Positions 3,927-9,503 of a DNA stretch of 64,000 nt are shown here, piece by piece (position 1 is the first letter of the stretch; the number at the start of each line of letters is the position of its first letter). The stretch lies in NCBI GenBank assembly GCA_012225525.1, contig GCA_012225525.1_3923.1, one strand, 5' to 3'. The position numbers were made by a program, and so were the translations under genes. The notes under the pieces were generated by a model that saw nothing but the letters and a program-made list of their open reading frames with translations, made no database searches and was not told the DNA's origin. This DNA is from a phage.

Positions 3927-4781
3927 ATGTTTGAAAAGATTGATAGTGTTTATTATAAAACACTTGATGAAAGGACTGTAACACAGTTTAAAGATAAATT
4001 TATCTATACAAGTATCTTGAAAGCAATCACTGATGAGCTACAAACACTAGAGGATGTTTGCTGGCAGATGCACACAGAGAGAAATATCAGGACGTCAGTA
4101 GGCCAACAACTTGATAATATTGGCTCACTGATTAAAGTTCCTAGACCTTTAGGTGCTGATGATGAAACATACAGAGCTATGCTTTATATCCAAATCTTCC
4201 TAAGACGTTCTGATACTACTCCAACATTCTTGCAAAAAGCAATTATGACATTGTATGGTGCAACTTTCTCTCAGATTTTTGAACATATTACTCCTAAGAC
4301 TGGTGGTATCGTTATCCGTATTAATACTAGAAAAAGCGTTCTTGATGCTGCATATACACTGTCAAAGATTTCTGCAACAACCACTGGTTCCGCTGTTATC
4401 TTAAGAGATGTTACTTTAAATGGGACCGCTTGGACACCTGTAGAGGTTGCTGATTCATCACTTGCTATTGTTGATGATAAAGAGAACTGGTTTGTAACTG
4501 ATGCTAACAGAGGTCTGGTAACAAATAACACTGGTGGCTCTCTGGAGTCCAACTTAGTAGGGAGTCTTGCAGATGCTGGTGTTATTGATGGTTACTTTAA
4601 GGTTGACAGAACAGCAAACTCACAGAGCGATGATTATATGACTGTAGATAGGTCTAATAATAGTGGCTATTTCATTGCTGGTAAAGAAGCTATTGCAGGT
4701 GGTGCATATGGAATCATGGCTGAGGTTGCACAAATTGTCAAAGGCAGAAAAGATAAATCACAACAAGAAGGAAATTCTTAA
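3927..4781 (+). CDS. putative baseplate or tail-fibre-associated protein
   Basis: 284 aa ORF in structural block. Confidence 0.4.
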
Positions 4782-5083
4782 TGGCAGTTCTAAATTGGTC
4801 TACAAACGAAGTAGATACTGATGGTAATCAGTTAAAAGTTTTACCACCACCGGAAGTTCAAGAGACAGGTCTTTTAAAGGGTGAGCCTATGGGTAGACAG
4901 TGGTTCAACTATATTATCAACTACCTGCTGAATAAAGTAAATGGCACTGTTGGTGAAGTTCGTTCATATGCAACTGAGCAACCAGATTTAGTGGCTAATG
5001 GCTGGAATCTCATTAAGTCTGAGACAGGGACTGCATCAACAAGTACAAGAAACCTTTACACATATGAATATGTAGGAGCTTAA
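4781..5083 (+). CDS. hypothetical structural protein
   Basis: 100 aa ORF coupled between structural genes. Confidence 0.4.
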
Positions 5084-5085
5084 TA

Positions 5086-6261
5086 ATGGCAGTAGGTGAA
5101 ATTCAAATTAGTGCCTTGCCACAAGCGGCCTTACCAATTGATTTGAGTGATATCTTCCACCTTAAGCAAGGTGTTGAGGATAAAAGATGTACGCTTGAGC
5201 AGTTGTTAGCACCTCACGCATCTCTGAGGAATAATCCTCATGGTGTAACTAAATCACAAGTGGGTCTTGATAATGTTATTAACTCTCTTCAATTAGTTGC
5301 AGCTAATAACTTGTCAGACATTGTGAATGTTGCTGAGGCAAGAGCAAATCTACAAATTATGTCGTCAGAGGAAGTGAATAATTTAATTAAGAAACATATT
5401 GACGATAAAAGTAACCCACACAATACAACGAAAGCACAGGTTGGTTTAAGTAACGTTCAAAACTGGACAACATCTAATTTATATAATGAAGATGCTGATA
5501 AATATGCTACAGCAAAAGCAGTCAATAACTTGTACAAAGCTATCCAAGCATCATATCCAGTAGGGACAATCCATCTATCTGTGAATCCAGCTAACCCATC
5601 CACTTACTTACTTTGTGGAGGTACTTGGGAATTAGTTTCTAAAGGTAGAGCACTAGTTGGCTATGATACAGATTCTAGACCTGTTGGTTCAATGTTTGGT
5701 TCTCAGACTGTAGCATTAACAAATAATAATTTACCAGCGCATACTCACTCTATCTATCTAACAGGTGGTGGTCATACACACTCTGCAAGCGTATCTATCT
5801 CTAGCTTTGATTATGGTTCAAAAAGTACATCGACTTTTGATTATGGTACGAAGACAACTAACAGTGCTGGTGCTCACACGCACACGTTTAGTGGCACAAC
5901 AAGCAATGCTGGTAACCACAACCATAGAGTACCTATGAGGGGTAATGATAGAGGTGGTACAAATGCTATTACTGCATCTGCTGATGCTGGTGTTGGTAAT
6001 GCTATGTATACTGATTTAGCTGGTGCTCACACCCATAGCTTCTCAGGCACAGCTGCATCATCTGGTGCTCATAGTCATACTGTTGCAATTGGTGCTCATA
6101 GTCACACTGTTAATATTGGTTCACACAGCCATACAGGTACTGTTACTGTTTCTAGCTCTGAGCATACACACTCAGGGACATCTGGTTCTGTTGGTGGTGG
6201 TCAAGCTTTCAGTGTTGAGCAGCCATCTTTTGTAGTGTATGTGTGGCAGAGAACAGCTTAA
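5086..6261 (+). CDS. tail fibre protein with C-terminal His-x-His repeat domain
   Basis: Repeated HTHS / HSHT / HNH motifs in a Gly/Ser/Thr-rich C-terminus (AHTHSIYLTGGGHTHSAS, GAHSHTVAIGAHSHTVNIGSHSHTG), as in metal-coordinating tips of T4 gp37-type fibres. Confidence 0.7.
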   Translation: MAVGEIQISALPQAALPIDLSDIFHLKQGVEDKRCTLEQLLAPHASLRNNPHGVTKSQVGLDNVINSLQLVAANNLSDIVNVAEARANLQIMSSEEVNNLIKKHIDDKSNPHNTTKAQVGLSNVQNWTTSNLYNEDADKYATAKAVNNLYKAIQASYPVGTIHLSVNPANPSTYLLCGGTWELVSKGRALVGYDTDSRPVGSMFGSQTVALTNNNLPAHTHSIYLTGGGHTHSASVSISSFDYGSKSTSTFDYGTKTTNSAGAHTHTFSGTTSNAGNHNHRVPMRGNDRGGTNAITASADAGVGNAMYTDLAGAHTHSFSGTAASSGAHSHTVAIGAHSHTVNIGSHSHTGTVTVSSSEHTHSGTSGSVGGGQAFSVEQPSFVVYVWQRTA

Positions 6262-6307
6262 TTTCTTTACAGGGGCTTTATAGCCCCTTTTAAGAGGAAA
6301 ATTCATA

Positions 6308-8857
6308 ATGGCAGATTACAAATTGAGTCAATTAAACTCAATCGACACAATTCGTTCAGAAGACCTATTGCACATCAGAGTTAAGAAAAGACCTGAAATG
6401 TTGGGTGATGAAGACCGTAGAATGACCTATCAAGACTTCTTAGCTTCCTTCAAACTAGAAAGGTTTGTTCAGATTGCTGGAAGCACTATGATTGGGGATT
6501 TAGGTATTGTCAAGTTACTTTACGGTGGAAAGTCTGTATTTGACCCTACAGGCTCTTCTGAGATTACTATTGGGGATATTTTAAAGACTTTTAAAATTAA
6601 CGCAAATGGTCTTAAACTAACTATTGCAGATGCTTCAAGGTCAGCAACTGTTTATCATACTCTGAATAAGCCAAGTCCTAATGAGCTTGGTATGAGGACT
6701 AATGAAGAGAATGATGCAAGATACGCAAGACTTGCTATCACAAACACATTCTCTGGAACTCAAAATATTCAAGGTGATGCTAACTTACTTCGCCTTAGAA
6801 ACCAAAATGCAAATAATGCACAATATATCGAAGGTGTAAACCTAGATGGTTCGGCTAGATGGTGGGTTGGTATTGGTAGTAATGGCTCTGACGAAGTAAA
6901 GCTGTACAATAACAAATACAACTCAGCCTTGACTGTTGCAAGTAATGTCTCTGTTAATAAGTCTTTAGCAATCACTGGTCAAGTTCAACCTTCAGATTTC
7001 TCTAACTTAGATGCCAGATACTTCACTCAGACAGTTGCTAATCAGAGATTTGCACAGTTAGCTGGTAATAACACCTTTACAGGTGCTAACACATTTAGGA
7101 CTATGAGTGTTATCTCAAATGCTGCTGCTATCACACTGCAATGTGCATCAGCAAACGAATCCCTGTATCTACTTGCAAAAGATTATGAAGGTGGAAACTT
7201 ATGGTATCTTGGTAAAGGTAGTTCAGGTGCTGGTGTAACTATCTACAACTATACCACTAACACCTCTTTAGTCTTAGATGCTGCTGGAGTATCAGCAAAT
7301 AAAAATGTCAGAATCACTGGTCAAGTTCAACCTTCAGATTGGGCTAACATTGACTCTAGATATATTCCGGCAGCAACATTAAGTACGATTGCAAGAACTA
7401 ATGCAAGGAATACTTTTAATGGTGTACAGACAGTTGTTACGGATAATGAAGGTCTGATTGTTAAAAACTCTACTCAGAATAGACCATTATATATTCGTGG
7501 TGTGGACACTACTAATGTATCAAGATGGTGGATTGGTGTTGGTGGTGCTGATACGAATGATGTTACCCTAAATAACAGTTATTCTGGAACCCAATTGGTT
7601 CTCGGGAATACAACATCATACATTAACAAAACATTGACTATTGCTGGACAAGTTCAACCTTCAGATTTCTCTAACTTAGATGCTAGATACTTTACGCAAA
7701 GTGCTAGTGATAGTAGATACCTAAGAATCAGAAGCACTAGCTTCAATGTGGGAAACACTGATAAGTGGGCTAAAATTGCCACTGTTGTGATGCCACAATC
7801 AGCATCCACTGCTGTTATTGAGGTATTTGGTGGGTCAGGTTTTAATATTAATACACCAAACCAAGCAGGTAAATGTGAAATTGTTCTGCGAACTTCAAAT
7901 AACAATCCAAAGGGCTTAAATGTTGTTGCTTGGAGAACATCAGAGAACACCATTGTCAGGGATATTGGTTATGTGAATACTTCTGGAGACACCTATGATA
8001 TTTACTATCTTGCTGGTACGTATCAAAACAGCACAACGACAAGGGTTCAGTCTTCTAGTAATGCAAGTGTACAGTTGTTTGAAGTCCCACAGACATTTGA
8101 TGATGCTCCACAAGGTATTGTGAAGGGTACAATTGCAAAATACTACACAAGTTTGCAAAAACCAACCCCTTCAGATATTGGTGCATACACTAAAGCAGAA
8201 ACTGACCAGAAGATTGCAGAAGCAATTAGTGACTCTACAGACCTGAATAAAATCTATCCAGTAGGTATTGTAACGTGGTTTAACAGCAATGTTAACCCTA
8301 ATACAGCACTTCCTGGGTTAACTTGGACGTACCTGAATAATGGTGTTGGTAGAACTATTAGAATTGCAGCAGCAAACGGTTCAGATGTTGCTACAACTGG
8401 TGGCTCAGACTCTGTAACGCTGTCTGTTGGTAACTTACCTTCACACACGCACAGCTTCTCTGCTACTACTTCATCATTTGACTATGGTACTAAGACTTCT
8501 AGCACAACTGGTAACCACAACCACAACAGAGGTACTATGGAGATTACTGGTTCATTTGGTTACTTCAGAAGTGACGCTAGTAGCTTCTACACAGCAAGTG
8601 GTGCATTCTACCTCGGTAGTCAGGCAGGTTCTAAAGGGTATACTGGTAACAACTTTACTAATGGTATCCCTGTCAACTTCAACGCATCAAGAAACTGGTC
8701 TGGTGTAACGAATACAACAGGTAACCACAGCCACACTGTTGGTATTGGTGCTCACAGCCACACAGTTAGCGGTAACACAGGTGGTACTGGTTCTGGTTCA
8801 GCATTTAGTGTTACTAACCAGTTCTATAAGTTAATGGCTTGGGTAAGAACTGCTTAA
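6308..8857 (+). CDS. long tail fibre protein
   Basis: 849 aa; three internal copies of ITGQVQPSD(F/W)(S/A)N(L/I)D(A/S)RY; C-terminus has the same HxH motifs (SHTHSFSATTSSFDYGTK, GNHSHTVGIGAHSHTV) as the preceding fibre gene. Confidence 0.75.
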   Translation: MADYKLSQLNSIDTIRSEDLLHIRVKKRPEMLGDEDRRMTYQDFLASFKLERFVQIAGSTMIGDLGIVKLLYGGKSVFDPTGSSEITIGDILKTFKINANGLKLTIADASRSATVYHTLNKPSPNELGMRTNEENDARYARLAITNTFSGTQNIQGDANLLRLRNQNANNAQYIEGVNLDGSARWWVGIGSNGSDEVKLYNNKYNSALTVASNVSVNKSLAITGQVQPSDFSNLDARYFTQTVANQRFAQLAGNNTFTGANTFRTMSVISNAAAITLQCASANESLYLLAKDYEGGNLWYLGKGSSGAGVTIYNYTTNTSLVLDAAGVSANKNVRITGQVQPSDWANIDSRYIPAATLSTIARTNARNTFNGVQTVVTDNEGLIVKNSTQNRPLYIRGVDTTNVSRWWIGVGGADTNDVTLNNSYSGTQLVLGNTTSYINKTLTIAGQVQPSDFSNLDARYFTQSASDSRYLRIRSTSFNVGNTDKWAKIATVVMPQSASTAVIEVFGGSGFNINTPNQAGKCEIVLRTSNNNPKGLNVVAWRTSENTIVRDIGYVNTSGDTYDIYYLAGTYQNSTTTRVQSSSNASVQLFEVPQTFDDAPQGIVKGTIAKYYTSLQKPTPSDIGAYTKAETDQKIAEAISDSTDLNKIYPVGIVTWFNSNVNPNTALPGLTWTYLNNGVGRTIRIAAANGSDVATTGGSDSVTLSVGNLPSHTHSFSATTSSFDYGTKTSSTTGNHNHNRGTMEITGSFGYFRSDASSFYTASGAFYLGSQAGSKGYTGNNFTNGIPVNFNASRNWSGVTNTTGNHSHTVGIGAHSHTVSGNTGGTGSGSAFSVTNQFYKLMAWVRTA

Positions 8858-8936: not shown

Positions 8937-9131
8937 ATGCCTACAATCCTAGCAATTCTTCTAAAAAATCTAGGTAGCTTCTTCTGGAAACTCATTTTAT
9001 CCCTTCTAAGTGAATACATGATTGAGAAAGTGTTCTTTAAGCTTGCAAGATACCTTGCGAGTAAAACAGATACACCTATTGATGATGAGTTCGTAGATAA
9101 CTTAGAAAAAGCTTTTAAGGGGGAGAAATAA
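8937..9131 (+). CDS. small membrane protein
   Basis: 64 aa, hydrophobic N-terminal segment (ILAILLKNLGSFFWKLILSLL). Confidence 0.35.
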   Translation: MPTILAILLKNLGSFFWKLILSLLSEYMIEKVFFKLARYLASKTDTPIDDEFVDNLEKAFKGEK

Positions 9132-9503
9132 ATGAAGTGGCTAGAGGAAGCTTTTAAAAATAATATTGGTGCAATTGTAGTTGGTATTTTTAGTGTTATT
9201 GGGATGTATACCACTATGCAAGTCTCAAGTGGTAAGCAGGAAGTGTCTGTCACAACAAAGTTACAGCAGCTAGATAATTATTCCAAAAGTAACTATTCAG
9301 CTATTCGTGATTTACAGTCTGACATGAGATTGATTCAGCTAGGGATGGAGAACCAGAAAGTTCAGTTAGAGAATGTTAAGGGTGAAAACGCAAAACTTAC
9401 CAAAACCCTTGATAAATTCTCTGACAGTGTGAACAATCTGGCTCAATCAGTATCAGCCTTGCAAGCTATTACTGAAAAGAACACAAAGAATACTGAAAAA
9501 TAA
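9132..9503 (+). CDS. membrane-anchored coiled-coil protein
   Basis: 123 aa, one N-terminal TM helix (IGAIVVGIFSVIGMY) then Q/L/N-rich heptad-like region; followed by a terminator. Confidence 0.4.
   Translation: MKWLEEAFKNNIGAIVVGIFSVIGMYTTMQVSSGKQEVSVTTKLQQLDNYSKSNYSAIRDLQSDMRLIQLGMENQKVQLENVKGENAKLTKTLDKFSDSVNNLAQSVSALQAITEKNTKNTEK

Follow-up and report, generated by a model that had tools for sequence, protein, structure and literature searches.

The window analyzed here, a stretch of 64,000 nucleotides (64 kb) of phage DNA, contains two consecutive tail-fibre genes with histidine-rich C-termini, which raises the question of whether both fibres carry one and the same receptor-binding tip on different shafts, and whether this tip has been exchanged between them. 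The window corresponded to a wV8-like Felixounavirus, i.e., a Felix O1-like E. coli phage, with 94–97% nucleotide identity over 95–100% coverage to wV8, KEP3 and the O157 typing phages 1, 8, 11, 12 and 15.

Both open reading frames were present exactly as originally predicted, on the plus strand like every feature described below. The upstream frame (positions 5086–6261; 391 aa), here the short tail fibre (STF), matched PHROG 2097, ‘tail fiber protein’ (E 6e-138), and is orthologous to gp26 of Bas63, also named JohannRWettstein, to Felix O1 gp76 (gp75 in the numbering of the FO1a record) and to wV8 gp82. It was 73% identical to Bas63 gp26, which occupies the same place in the gene order; identity was 73–78% when the STFs of Bas63 and Felix O1 are taken together, compared to 96–99% for STFs of the wV8 group. 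The downstream frame (6308–8857; 849 aa), the long tail fibre (LTF), was assigned by synteny and by a full-length match to PHROG 4277 (E 0), with Bas63 gp27, Felix O1 gp77 and wV8 gp83 as orthologues; in Sf14, the corresponding fibre pair is gp52 and gp53. The whole fibre region was syntenic with gp23–gp31 of Bas63 in an identical gene order. Specifically, Bas63, Felix O1, wV8 and Sf14 have in common the order wedge 2, wedge 1, LTF platform, STF and LTF, followed by two small ORFs, thymidylate synthase and DHFR; in the window, the wedge 2 protein (489 aa) carries a Baseplate_J domain (Pfam), and the two small ORFs belong to PHROG 402 and 4038, both of unknown function. Immediately upstream of the STF gene, a 100-aa protein (4781–5083) was matched by phmmer (E 9.9e-59) to chain S of PDB entry 9NDY, the Bas63 ‘LTF platform protein (gp025)’, through which the long fibre attaches to the baseplate. 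For the Felixounavirus STF/LTF pair, orthologous genes were thus found in a conserved order, downstream of the genes for wedge proteins and LTF platform.

The enrichment of the C-termini in HxH motifs, the feature that had first drawn attention to this locus, was confirmed in both proteins and was far above that of shuffled sequences. Nine motifs were present in the STF (at 219, 230, 264, 278, 315, 329, 338, 347 and 360), comprising 18 of its 24 histidines, and four in the LTF (at 713, 737, 807 and 816), comprising 8 of 10. Neither number was ever reached in 20,000 composition-preserving shuffles of the STF (mean 1.4, maximum 7) or 20,000 shuffles of the whole LTF (mean 0.11, maximum 2); when only the last 150 residues of the LTF were shuffled, four motifs were reached in 4 of 20,000 cases. 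Of the 30 HxH motifs encoded by the 99 open frames of the window with 100 aa or more, 13 belong to these two fibres. The shared peptide SSFDYG(S/T)K was likewise recovered, as SSFDYGSK at residue 239 of the STF and SSFDYGTK at residue 722 of the LTF, and a second FDYGTK was located at residue 251 of the STF.

With regard to the proposed resemblance to the tip of T4 gp37, the comparison stood as one of true homology. Residues 145–362 of the STF matched the crystal structure of the gp37 tip (2XGF) with an E value of 4.6e-26, while the E value for the LTF was 5.7e-7 with the sequence by itself and 4.5e-30 with the profile of its family, whose alignment extended from the collar to the C-terminal residue. 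Each of the seven HxH motifs of T4 had a counterpart in the STF; six, T4 H915 to H998, fell into a stretch of 103 residues aligned without gaps, and the spacing of motifs was 11-34-14-37-14-9-9-13 in the STF versus 32-14-37-14-9-9 in T4. In the 2XGF alignment, STF H230, H264 and H278 correspond to T4 H883, H915 and H929, and positions 315, 329, 338 and 347 to T4 966, 980, 989 and 998; in the LTF, 737, 807 and 816 align with T4 915, 980 and 989, and 713 lies only roughly at T4 883. The T4 counterparts of STF motifs 219 and 360 and of LTF motif 713 are not certain. In both fibres, a collar of the gp10/gp11/gp12 type precedes the needle, and HxH motifs flank the head on an ascending and a descending arm (four and five in the STF, two and two in the LTF) in the register of the T4 iron sites. 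The tips hence resemble gp37 in the collar, the FDYGTK peptide, the HxH needle with matching spacing, the chain reversal at the head and the C-terminal strand, and differ from it in that the STF has two additional HxH motifs and the LTF three fewer. Fe occupies the HxH sites in the solved T4 structure 2XGF, according to the account of Bartual et al. 2010 given in PMC12609058. By analogy, the STF and LTF tips may bind metal and form a trimeric needle. Monomers modelled with AlphaFold2 were of mediocre quality (pLDDT 73.9 and 62.3, pTM about 0.35, with the LTF head below 50); phmmer searches with STF and LTF matched no chain of 9NDY, and no deposited atomic model of a Felixounavirus fibre was found.

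The STF was divided into five parts. Residues 1–145 (5086–5520), in which the motif NPHxxTKxQVGLxNVxN was found twice (aa 50 and 110), would comprise the baseplate-binding region and shaft, a role taken from the Bas63 model, in which the STF N-terminus binds wedge 2 (PMC12609058). A collar of the T4 gp10/gp11/gp37 type (about aa 146–218; 5521–5739) is followed by the ascending needle arm (aa 219–280; 5740–5925), with HxH motifs 219, 230, 264 and 278 and two FDYGxK repeats. The head (aa 281–314; 5926–6027), a predicted distal knob for receptor contact, is variable between relatives; its HxH-to-HxH span of 37 residues equals that of the T4 head, and the same head type was present in 60 phage records, all with Ounavirinae-sized genomes. 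The descending needle arm and C-terminal strand ...QAFSVEQPSFVVYVWQRTA (6028–6258) contain motifs 315, 329, 338, 347 and 360, and this strand probably returns to the collar, as judged from the chain-reversal topology of T4 and Bas63. Within this architecture, an exchangeable cassette was delimited at about aa 251–340 (5836–6105), between FDYGTK and IGAHSHTV; these borders are putative and derive from the match between the STF and LTF of Felix O1. Nucleotide identity to Felix O1, AYO145A, KhF1 and Bas63 fell to 37–60% at about 5866–6045, whereas it was 65–90% in the flanks.

The LTF has a different shaft, with three repeats of about 110 aa (6695–7717) assigned to gp37_trimer (PF20744; Pfam E 2.2e-77 in three stretches), each terminating in GQVQPSD (aa 224, 338 and 447). 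At the DNA level, these correspond to repeat families D1 and D6 with a period of 342/327 nt, and the shaft blocks are mosaic between relatives. The collar (about aa 639–712; 8222–8443) was recognized by Pfam as Gp10_C (E 8.4e-6, 27.2 bits with a cut-off of 27) and is 97–100% identical across Felixounavirus. An ascending arm (aa 713–739; 8444–8524), with motifs 713 and 737 and the SSFDYGTK peptide, leads to the head, a large knob of 67 residues (aa 740–806; 8525–8725). This head is of a type typical for O157 and Shigella phages and was found at 100% identity in O157:H7 phages only, at 91% in the T-even-type phage ZQ3 and at 79% in fibres of Mu-like E. coli prophages. The descending arm and C-terminal strand ...SAFSVTNQFYKLMAWVRTA (8726–8854), with motifs 807 and 816, were 100% identical to those of Felix O1 and Bas63. 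Here, the exchangeable cassette (8477–8760) runs from the stretch coding for FDYGTK to that for GAHSHT.

The relationship between the two tips could in principle reflect independent origin, a recent copy or older common descent. Residues 136–391 of the STF and 623–849 of the LTF were 28% identical by BLASTP with compositional adjustment (E 2e-15), and comparison of the two families by profile (hhalign) gave a probability of 100% (E 1e-39). Smith–Waterman z scores were 17.9 for the whole tips and 11.3 against shuffles of 10-residue blocks; by part, they were 8.4 for the non-repetitive collar, 8.4 for the needle and head and 11.8 for the C-terminal strand. That Gly/Ser/Thr/His-rich β-strand repeats arose twice, with HxH motifs forming no metal needle, would agree with the compositional bias of the tips (S+T+G+A about 54% of STF 206–391 and about 52% of LTF 700–849) and with the fold searches, in which the monomer models yielded nothing significant. 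This explanation is hardly credible in view of the composition-corrected BLASTP and hhalign values, block-shuffle z scores of 5–11 in every sub-segment, collar and C-terminal strand included, the presence of FDYGTK and identical HxH spacing within the gapless 103-residue match to 2XGF, and the conservation of most HxH columns at 90% or more in alignments of 66 and 73 homologues. Global and block shuffles and profile comparison refuted a compositional artefact at the sequence level. The similarity of the gp10-type collar, needle and C-terminal strand is therefore one of true homology. The original view of one shared tip module was accurate in that the tips are homologous, but they are diverged paralogous modules, whose collars are 38%, central cassettes 22% and C-terminal parts 57% identical. 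Very unlikely, too, is a recent copy or gene conversion between the two fibre genes of the window, which would imply that both recognize an identical or closely similar receptor. Such events do occur in the family, since the STF and LTF cassettes of Felix O1 (FO1a) are 80% identical in amino acids and 81.5% in nucleotides over 271 nt, with an exact run of 42 nt, and short His-box matches also connect the two genes analyzed here (81% over 43 nt; 6070–6112 and 6097–6139 versus 8726–8768). However, DNA similarity between the two genes of the window is confined to this 43-nt match, with a longest exact run of 16 nt, the heads (34 versus 67 residues) could not be aligned, the cassettes and collars have diverged to the identities given above, and the nearest relatives of the LTF cassette are T-even and Mu-like fibres instead of the neighbouring STF. 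A recent STF/LTF exchange in this window was thus refuted by the 22% cassette identity and the 16-nt longest run.

The proposal of modular exchange was nonetheless right in principle. The exchanged unit is the inner cassette, i.e., distal needle and head between FDYGTK and GAHxHT, and not the whole tip, and the LTF cassette has its partners in gp37 of T-even phages and in fibres of Mu-like prophages. In particular, the LTF cassette was 88.7% identical over 284 nt to gp37 of the Mosigvirus vB_EcoM-ZQ3, with nothing alignable beyond it, and 75.9% identical in nucleotides to a Mu-like prophage fibre, while it was only 28–32% identical in amino acids to Felix O1, Bas63, AYO145A and KhF1, whose flanks were 97–100% identical. 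Similarly, the LTF cassette of AYO145A was 87% (amino acids) and 87.8% (nucleotides) identical to T4 gp37, so that T-even gp37 genes and Felixounavirus LTFs have whole cassettes in common at 87–89% nucleotide identity. In T-even fibres, conserved motifs coding for GxHxH flank the variable adhesin segments and serve as recombination junctions. This ‘His-box’ recombination of the distal fibre was reportedly described by Tetart, Desplats and Krisch in J Mol Biol in 1998; our literature search did not find the term ‘His box’. The cassette borders at FDYGTK and GAHxHT are comparable to these boxes, with the difference that exchange here spans Ounavirinae, Tevenvirinae and Mu-like prophages and, in Felix O1, also took place between two fibre genes of one genome.

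The homology, motif correspondence, mosaic borders and gene order observed here are very probably best explained by a Felixounavirus STF and LTF with gp37-type trimeric tips, two adhesins and swappable cassettes. According to this model, the STF would be anchored on the baseplate wedge and the LTF on the platform protein encoded just upstream, both fibres would be homotrimers, and their C-terminal 210–245 residues would form a T4 gp37-type receptor-binding tip. Each chain would run from a gp10/gp11-like collar through an ascending strand to a small distal head, where it would turn back and descend to the collar; the trimer's six strands would build a thin needle. At each HxH, the three chains would give six imidazoles to one octahedral metal ion, Fe(II) in T4, and the ions would pin the register and stiffen the needle. 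Judged by motif count, the STF might hold up to nine ions, i.e., the seven T4 sites and an extra one at each collar-proximal end, whereas the LTF would hold four, lacking three T4 sites, the two nearest the head and the last on the descending arm, and carrying its 67-residue head in place of the missing sites. The cassette of distal needle and head would be swapped by recombination through the conserved stretches coding for FDYGTK and GAHxHT.

Since the heads differ completely between the fibres, the phage would present two different adhesins. Both heads of the window were 100% identical to those of TP11 and TP15, which depend on both the group 4 capsule and the GlcIII residue of the R3 core (bioRxiv 10.64898/2026.07.23.740414), and two different adhesins would fit these two surface determinants; how the receptors are divided between the fibres, and in what order they are bound, are parts of the model that we infer. 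GlcIII denotes the glucose that terminates the outer core of R3 LPS, and the requirement was established genetically for O157 typing phages 11 and 15. Alternatively, the LTF could be the sole adhesin and the STF tip mainly structural, serving as a brace or trigger that docks on the tail sheath of the resting virion. Indeed, the Bas63 STF head lies between sheath domains D2 and D3 of the tenth ring, and the STFs are fully occupied while LTF occupancy varies (PMC12609058); moreover, the STF is the more conserved fibre and is kept in Kolesnikvirus, whose second fibre is without an HxH tip. We consider this improbable. The STF head is among the most variable parts of the structural module, and the STF cassette is 34–58% identical between genera compared with 72–85% for its flanks, a signature of host-driven selection. 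Head types also co-vary with the host group (60 records for the STF, 61 for the LTF), and the long fibres of T4, when retracted, likewise dock on the tail and yet are adhesins. The 60 and 61 records are largely the same genomes of E. coli and Shigella phages.

The presence of two fibres with gp37-type tips is real but ordinary, having already been published for close relatives. C-terminal similarity of both Felix O1 fibres to gp37 was reported by Whichard in 2010 (PMC3185647), and the 2025 cryo-EM study of Bas63 placed the STF on wedge 2 and the LTF on a platform resembling gp9; in either fibre, the tip was gp37-like and consisted of a collar, a needle with HxH motifs (7 and 6, respectively) and a head (PMC12609058). 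Our recount reproduced these motif numbers. The anticipated two adhesins with related tips on different shafts agree with that structure, as do synteny and the match of the platform protein to 9NDY chain S. A preprint on gene essentiality in Bas63 (PMC11482910) contained nothing on STF or LTF. Compared to Bas63 (7 and 6) and Felix O1 (9 and 6), the window has 9 and 4 motifs in STF and LTF, its head cassettes differ and its LTF shaft blocks are mosaic.

Enterobacterales prophages of the lambdoid, Mu-like and P2-like types have the same tip module in their side and tail fibres, annotated in Pfam as Collar (PF07484) or Gp10_C, Phage_fiber (PF03335) and Phage_fiber_2 (PF03406). Residues 602–849 of the LTF were 40–50% identical over 85–90% of their length to hundreds of such fibres, and the STF needle was 56–59% identical to E. 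coli prophage fibres. Unlike here, the prophage fibre genes are followed by a Caudo_TAP/Tfa chaperone gene, and their N-terminal shafts differ. Fibres of T4, lambda and Mu with this type of tip need a chaperone of the gp38 or Tfa type. In T4, gp37 makes up the distal quarter of a kinked, 145-nm fibre built from four proteins and needs gp38 and gp57A, whereas STF and LTF are each one protein, of 391 or 849 aa, directly on the baseplate. No chaperone of the gp38 or Tfa type was detected in the 64-kb window, out of a genome of about 88 kb as judged by its closest relatives, by tblastn with T4 gp38 and a Mu-like Caudo_TAP (best E 0.21). A nearby folding chaperone is an accessory feature that lies outside the definition of the gp37 fold.

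It is conceivable, although we put it forward tentatively and hold it to be rather doubtful, that the FDYGTK and GAHxHT stretches are universal splice sites of a two-slot adhesin system, whose cassettes are traded, at about 88% nucleotide identity, with gp37 of T-even phages and with fibres of Mu-like prophages and fold without gp38 or Tfa, the chaperones on which this cassette relies in those other hosts. In such a system, one cassette of head and distal needle would fit either the STF or the LTF of an Ounavirinae phage; Felix O1 has near-copies in both. If true, host range would be reprogrammable by cassette swaps at set junctions, without co-transfer of a chaperone.

The fibres decide which bacteria are infected by this phage group of relevance for biocontrol, which includes the typing phages for O157:H7 as well as Felix O1, a tool of Salmonella diagnostics, and specificity in a short cassette with recognizable borders offers a practical handle for the prediction and engineering of host range. 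This is no new kind of biology, with the architecture published for Bas63 and Felix O1 and His-box cassette exchange being a classical T-even result. For the window itself, the value lies in the correct annotation of STF, LTF and platform protein and in the coordinates of the cassettes. As a minor observation, a hairpin (GGGGCT-TTAT-AGCCCC, followed by TTTT; 6272–6291) lies between the two fibre genes. A scan of this interval for consensus terminators returned none, the hairpin being below the threshold; with its GC stem of 6 bp, it may act as a weak terminator, and the annotations of wV8 and AYO145A list it as a rho-independent terminator.

The window derives from a phage genome of the genus Felixounavirus (Ounavirinae), and its 3.8-kb fibre region showed 97% nucleotide identity, at 95–100% coverage, to the Escherichia phages KEP3 and wV8 and to the O157 typing phages 1, 8, 11, 12 and 15. 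Both fibre ORFs of the original prediction were found at exactly the coordinates proposed, on the + strand: the short tail fibre gene (STF) at 5086–6261 (391 aa) and the long tail fibre gene (LTF) at 6308–8857 (849 aa). Their neighbourhood is the same as in phage Bas63 (JohannRWettstein), the locus being ordered as a Baseplate_J wedge protein (489 aa), a 284-aa wedge protein, a 100-aa protein, STF, LTF and two small ORFs, followed on the opposite strand by the genes for thymidylate synthase and dihydrofolate reductase. The 100-aa protein matched chain S of PDB 9NDY, the ‘LTF platform protein (gp025)’ of Bas63 (E 9.9e-59), and STF was 73% identical to the Bas63 short tail fibre gp26. Based on these matches and on the conserved neighbourhood, we identify the 391-aa protein as the orthologue of gp26 and the 849-aa protein as that of the Bas63 long tail fibre gp27. 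The two ORFs after LTF (PHROG 402 and 4038) lie at 8937–9131 and 9132–9503 and both code for small proteins of unknown function, the second being annotated as ‘putative holin’ in SUSP1 and Sf15.

The proposal that both fibres end in HxH-rich segments and share the peptide SSFDYG(S/T)K was borne out. STF harbors nine HxH motifs (residues 219, 230, 264, 278, 315, 329, 338, 347 and 360) and LTF four (residues 713, 737, 807 and 816), and nearly all histidines of the two proteins are located inside such motifs. Neither the STF count (0 of 20,000) nor that of the whole LTF was ever reached by composition-preserving shuffles, and for the last 150 LTF residues alone the observed count was reached by 4 of 20,000. 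The two fibres together account for 13 of the 30 HxH motifs counted across the 99 open reading frames of ≥100 aa in the window. The peptide is present as SSFDYGSK at STF 239 and as SSFDYGTK at LTF 722, with an extra FDYGTK at STF 251.

Sequence comparison showed that each fibre has a C-terminus homologous to that of gp37, the T4 long tail fibre protein whose receptor-binding tip has been crystallised (PDB 2XGF), so that the likeness to a T4 gp37-type tip held for both fibres. STF matched 2XGF with an E value of 4.6e-26, and its residues 246–348 aligned without gaps to gp37 897–999, so that six STF motifs (264, 278, 315, 329, 338 and 347) fall one-to-one on T4 H915, H929, H966, H980, H989 and H998; a seventh motif, STF 230, pairs with T4 H883 one alignment block earlier. 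The motifs are spaced 11-34-14-37-14-9-9-13 in STF compared with 32-14-37-14-9-9 in T4, and STF therefore comprises a needle of T4 length plus one additional motif per collar-proximal end. LTF matched 2XGF with E 5.7e-7 as a single sequence and with E 4.5e-30 as a family profile, which spanned the collar to the last residue. In comparison with T4 gp37, LTF has kept the counterparts of 915, 980 and 989 and, roughly, that of 883, whereas three sites are missing, two next to the head and the last one of the descending arm, and the head insert is 67 residues long instead of about 34. N-terminal to the needle, each fibre carries a gp10/gp11-type collar (Pfam Gp10_C, 64.7 and 27.2 bits; cut-off 27), and T4 gp10 was also matched by phmmer. 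The LTF shaft consists of three gp37_trimer repeats of ~110 residues (Pfam E 2.2e-77), which are also repeated at the DNA level.

A similarity between the two tips confined to low-complexity composition, the outcome that would have spoken against the original prediction, is at odds with several comparisons. STF 136–391 aligned to LTF 623–849 with E 2e-15 in BLASTP with compositional correction, and the whole-tip alignment score lay above those of global and 10-residue block shuffles (z 11–18); against the same shuffles, z values of 5–12 were obtained for each of the non-repetitive collar, the needle plus head and the C-terminal strand. Profile–profile comparison of 66 STF-type with 73 LTF-type homologues gave a probability of 100% and E 1e-39. 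Identity between STF and LTF in the window is 38% in the collar, 22% in the cassette (the distal needle plus head, bounded by FDYGTK and GAHxHT) and 57% in the C-terminal part, and at the DNA level the two genes share a single 43-nt His-box match (81%). The low cassette identity and the single DNA match therefore identify the tips of the window as old paralogues with different heads; a module recently shared between them is ruled out by the 22% cassette identity and a longest exact run of 16 nt.

AlphaFold2 monomer models of the tips reached a pLDDT of 73.9 for STF and 62.3 for LTF (head <50), with a pTM of about 0.35 in both cases, and a Foldseek search of these models against the PDB gave no significant match, T4 gp10 being the best (E 0.12 and 0.04). 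T4 gp10 belongs to the right family, and modelling one chain of an interdigitated trimer alone would be expected to give weak scores. Because the monomer models are uninformative on the needle, the predicted trimer geometry and metal sites are based on the sequence homology to 2XGF together with the published reconstruction of Bas63.

In order to compare the tips among relatives, both fibres were taken from twelve Ounavirinae and aligned with T4 gp37. STF carries nine HxH motifs in Felix O1 and the wV8 group, seven in Bas63 and SUSP1, six in Kolesnikvirus and ten in Pectobacterium phage Wc4-1, while LTF carries four in the window, wV8, HY02, Sf15 and Shigella phage Tf, and six in Felix O1, Bas63, SUSP1, AYO145A and KhF1. 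Kolesnikvirus has kept STF, and its second fibre is devoid of an HxH tip: at 5153–7414 of the two Kolesnikvirus loci (L005 and L006; hosts Erwinia and Salmonella), a 502-aa ‘proximal subunit’ without HxH replaces LTF; next come a 244-aa fibre protein and a large structural protein, which gives the second fibre a multi-protein design in this genus. Between the window and Felix O1, Bas63, AYO145A and KhF1, the LTF collar with the proximal arm and the C-terminal part were 97–100% identical, whereas the central cassette was only 28–32% identical. A sliding nucleotide comparison located the cassette at about 8446–8745 in LTF and at about 5866–6045 in STF. The LTF shaft is also a patchwork, with blocks at 6706–6945, 7066–7305 and 7366–8145; block 7066–7305 is 42–65% identical to wV8 (elsewhere 97% at the nucleotide level) and 95–98% to Shigella phage Tf, and block 7366–8145 matches wV8 at 98–100% identity and has diverged from the rest of the phages compared. 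In the STF shaft, the motif NPHxxTKxQVGLxNVxN occurs twice (5233–5283 and 5413–5463; aa 50–66 and 110–126), and STF 26–130 is 36–41% identical to structural proteins of the jumbo phages Serratia PCH45, Klebsiella phiKp24 and Ralstonia RP12.

The modular exchange of the original prediction is right in principle and is visible with other viruses, but a recent sharing between the two fibres of the window was not borne out. The LTF segment 8477–8760 extends from the FDYGTK to the GAHSHT codons and shares 88.7% identity over 284 nt with gp37 of the T-even-type Mosigvirus vB_EcoM-ZQ3 (locus L015, 3450–3733), and nothing was alignable between the window and this gp37 beyond that segment. The LTF head also resembles a fibre of a Mu-like E. 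coli prophage (locus L014, 5631–5920; 79% protein and 75.9% DNA identity), which showed no similarity to LTF beyond the cassette, has T4-like flanks and is followed by a Caudo_TAP chaperone gene. Similarly, the AYO145A LTF cassette (locus L009, 7206–7492) is 87% identical in amino acids and 87.8% in nucleotides to T4 gp37 (locus L013, 3516–3802), whose head and distal needle are the receptor-recognising part of T4. In Salmonella phage Felix O1 (FO1a; locus L002), the STF and LTF cassettes (4748–5017 and 7198–7467) are 80% identical in amino acids and 81.5% over 271 nt, with an exact run of 42 nt, whereas the collars are only 39% identical; this is an intragenomic cassette copy, which is absent from the window's phage. 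In all four cases, the mosaic borders were located at FDYGTK and GAHxHTV. These nucleotide comparisons show that the LTF cassette has been exchanged horizontally between virus families, the junctions lying at the FDYGTK and GAHSHT codons. The borders are those of the ‘His-box’ recombination of T-even distal fibre genes, reportedly described by Tetart, Desplats and Krisch in 1998, although the exchange spans virus families here. In T-even phages and Mu-like prophages, a chaperone gene (gp38 or Tfa/Caudo_TAP) lies downstream of the fibre genes that carry this cassette, and no homologue of either chaperone was detected by tblastn in the 64-kb window (best E 0.21).

The LTF head of the window was present in 61 of 50,697 phage records. 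Among the matches listed, all 100%-identical heads belonged to phages for which E. coli O157:H7 was the isolation host, and the remaining ones to E. coli, Shigella and Citrobacter phages, with one partial match only from a Salmonella phage. The STF head was found in 60 records, mostly of the same genomes. Both heads of the window are identical to those of the typing phages TP11 and TP15, for which RB-TnSeq on O157:H7 revealed two dependencies: the group 4 capsule and GlcIII, the terminal glucose of the R3 LPS outer core (bioRxiv 10.64898/2026.07.23.740414). Two determinants and two distinct heads are consistent with a two-adhesin model.

In published structures of relatives, wedge 2 carries STF and the platform trimer carries LTF; in the resting virion the two fibres are folded upwards against the sheath, and the chain reverses at the head. 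STF and LTF would be homotrimers with up to nine and four axial metal ions, respectively, each held by six histidines, and, given six fibres of each type, a virion could contain up to 78 metal ions. The heads would act as the receptor-contact surfaces, and the two fibres may be used sequentially.

The resemblance of both Felix O1 fibre proteins to T4 gp37 at their C-termini was noted by Whichard et al. 2010 (PMC3185647), and the wV8 and Felix O1 database records name the short fibre ‘tail fiber protein GP37’. The Sf14 structure paper considers different receptors possible for the two fibre types (PMC11821841), and the Bas63 cryo-EM paper assigns both fibres a gp37-like tip (collar, HxH needle and head) and describes a chain that doubles back at the head, with seven di-histidine motifs in STF and six in LTF (PMC12609058), in line with our recount on the Bas63 sequences (7 and 6). 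Since the latter paper is explicit on these tips, the finding is already in print for the orthologues. The feature is thus known for the genus, its initial observation is confirmed and its interpretation was essentially right; the only additions made here are the motif numbers of nine and four, the large O157-type LTF head, the cassette coordinates and the cassette-level picture of exchange.

Between the STF and LTF genes, a hairpin (GGGGCT-TTAT-AGCCCC followed by TTTT) is located at 6272–6291; it is listed in the wV8 and AYO145A annotations as a rho-independent terminator and fell under the threshold of a consensus terminator scan. This hairpin might lower LTF expression relative to that of STF; LTF occupancy is partial in Bas63 virions. 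Finally, the central spike protein (P2 gpV-like; 1413–2036, + strand, 207 aa) carries a C-terminal EHTHH at residues 187–191, which matches the HxH (H188, H190) that the Bas63 paper places at an iron site of the puncturing apparatus (PMC12609058), so that the spike is a third protein of the same module with a putative HxH metal site.
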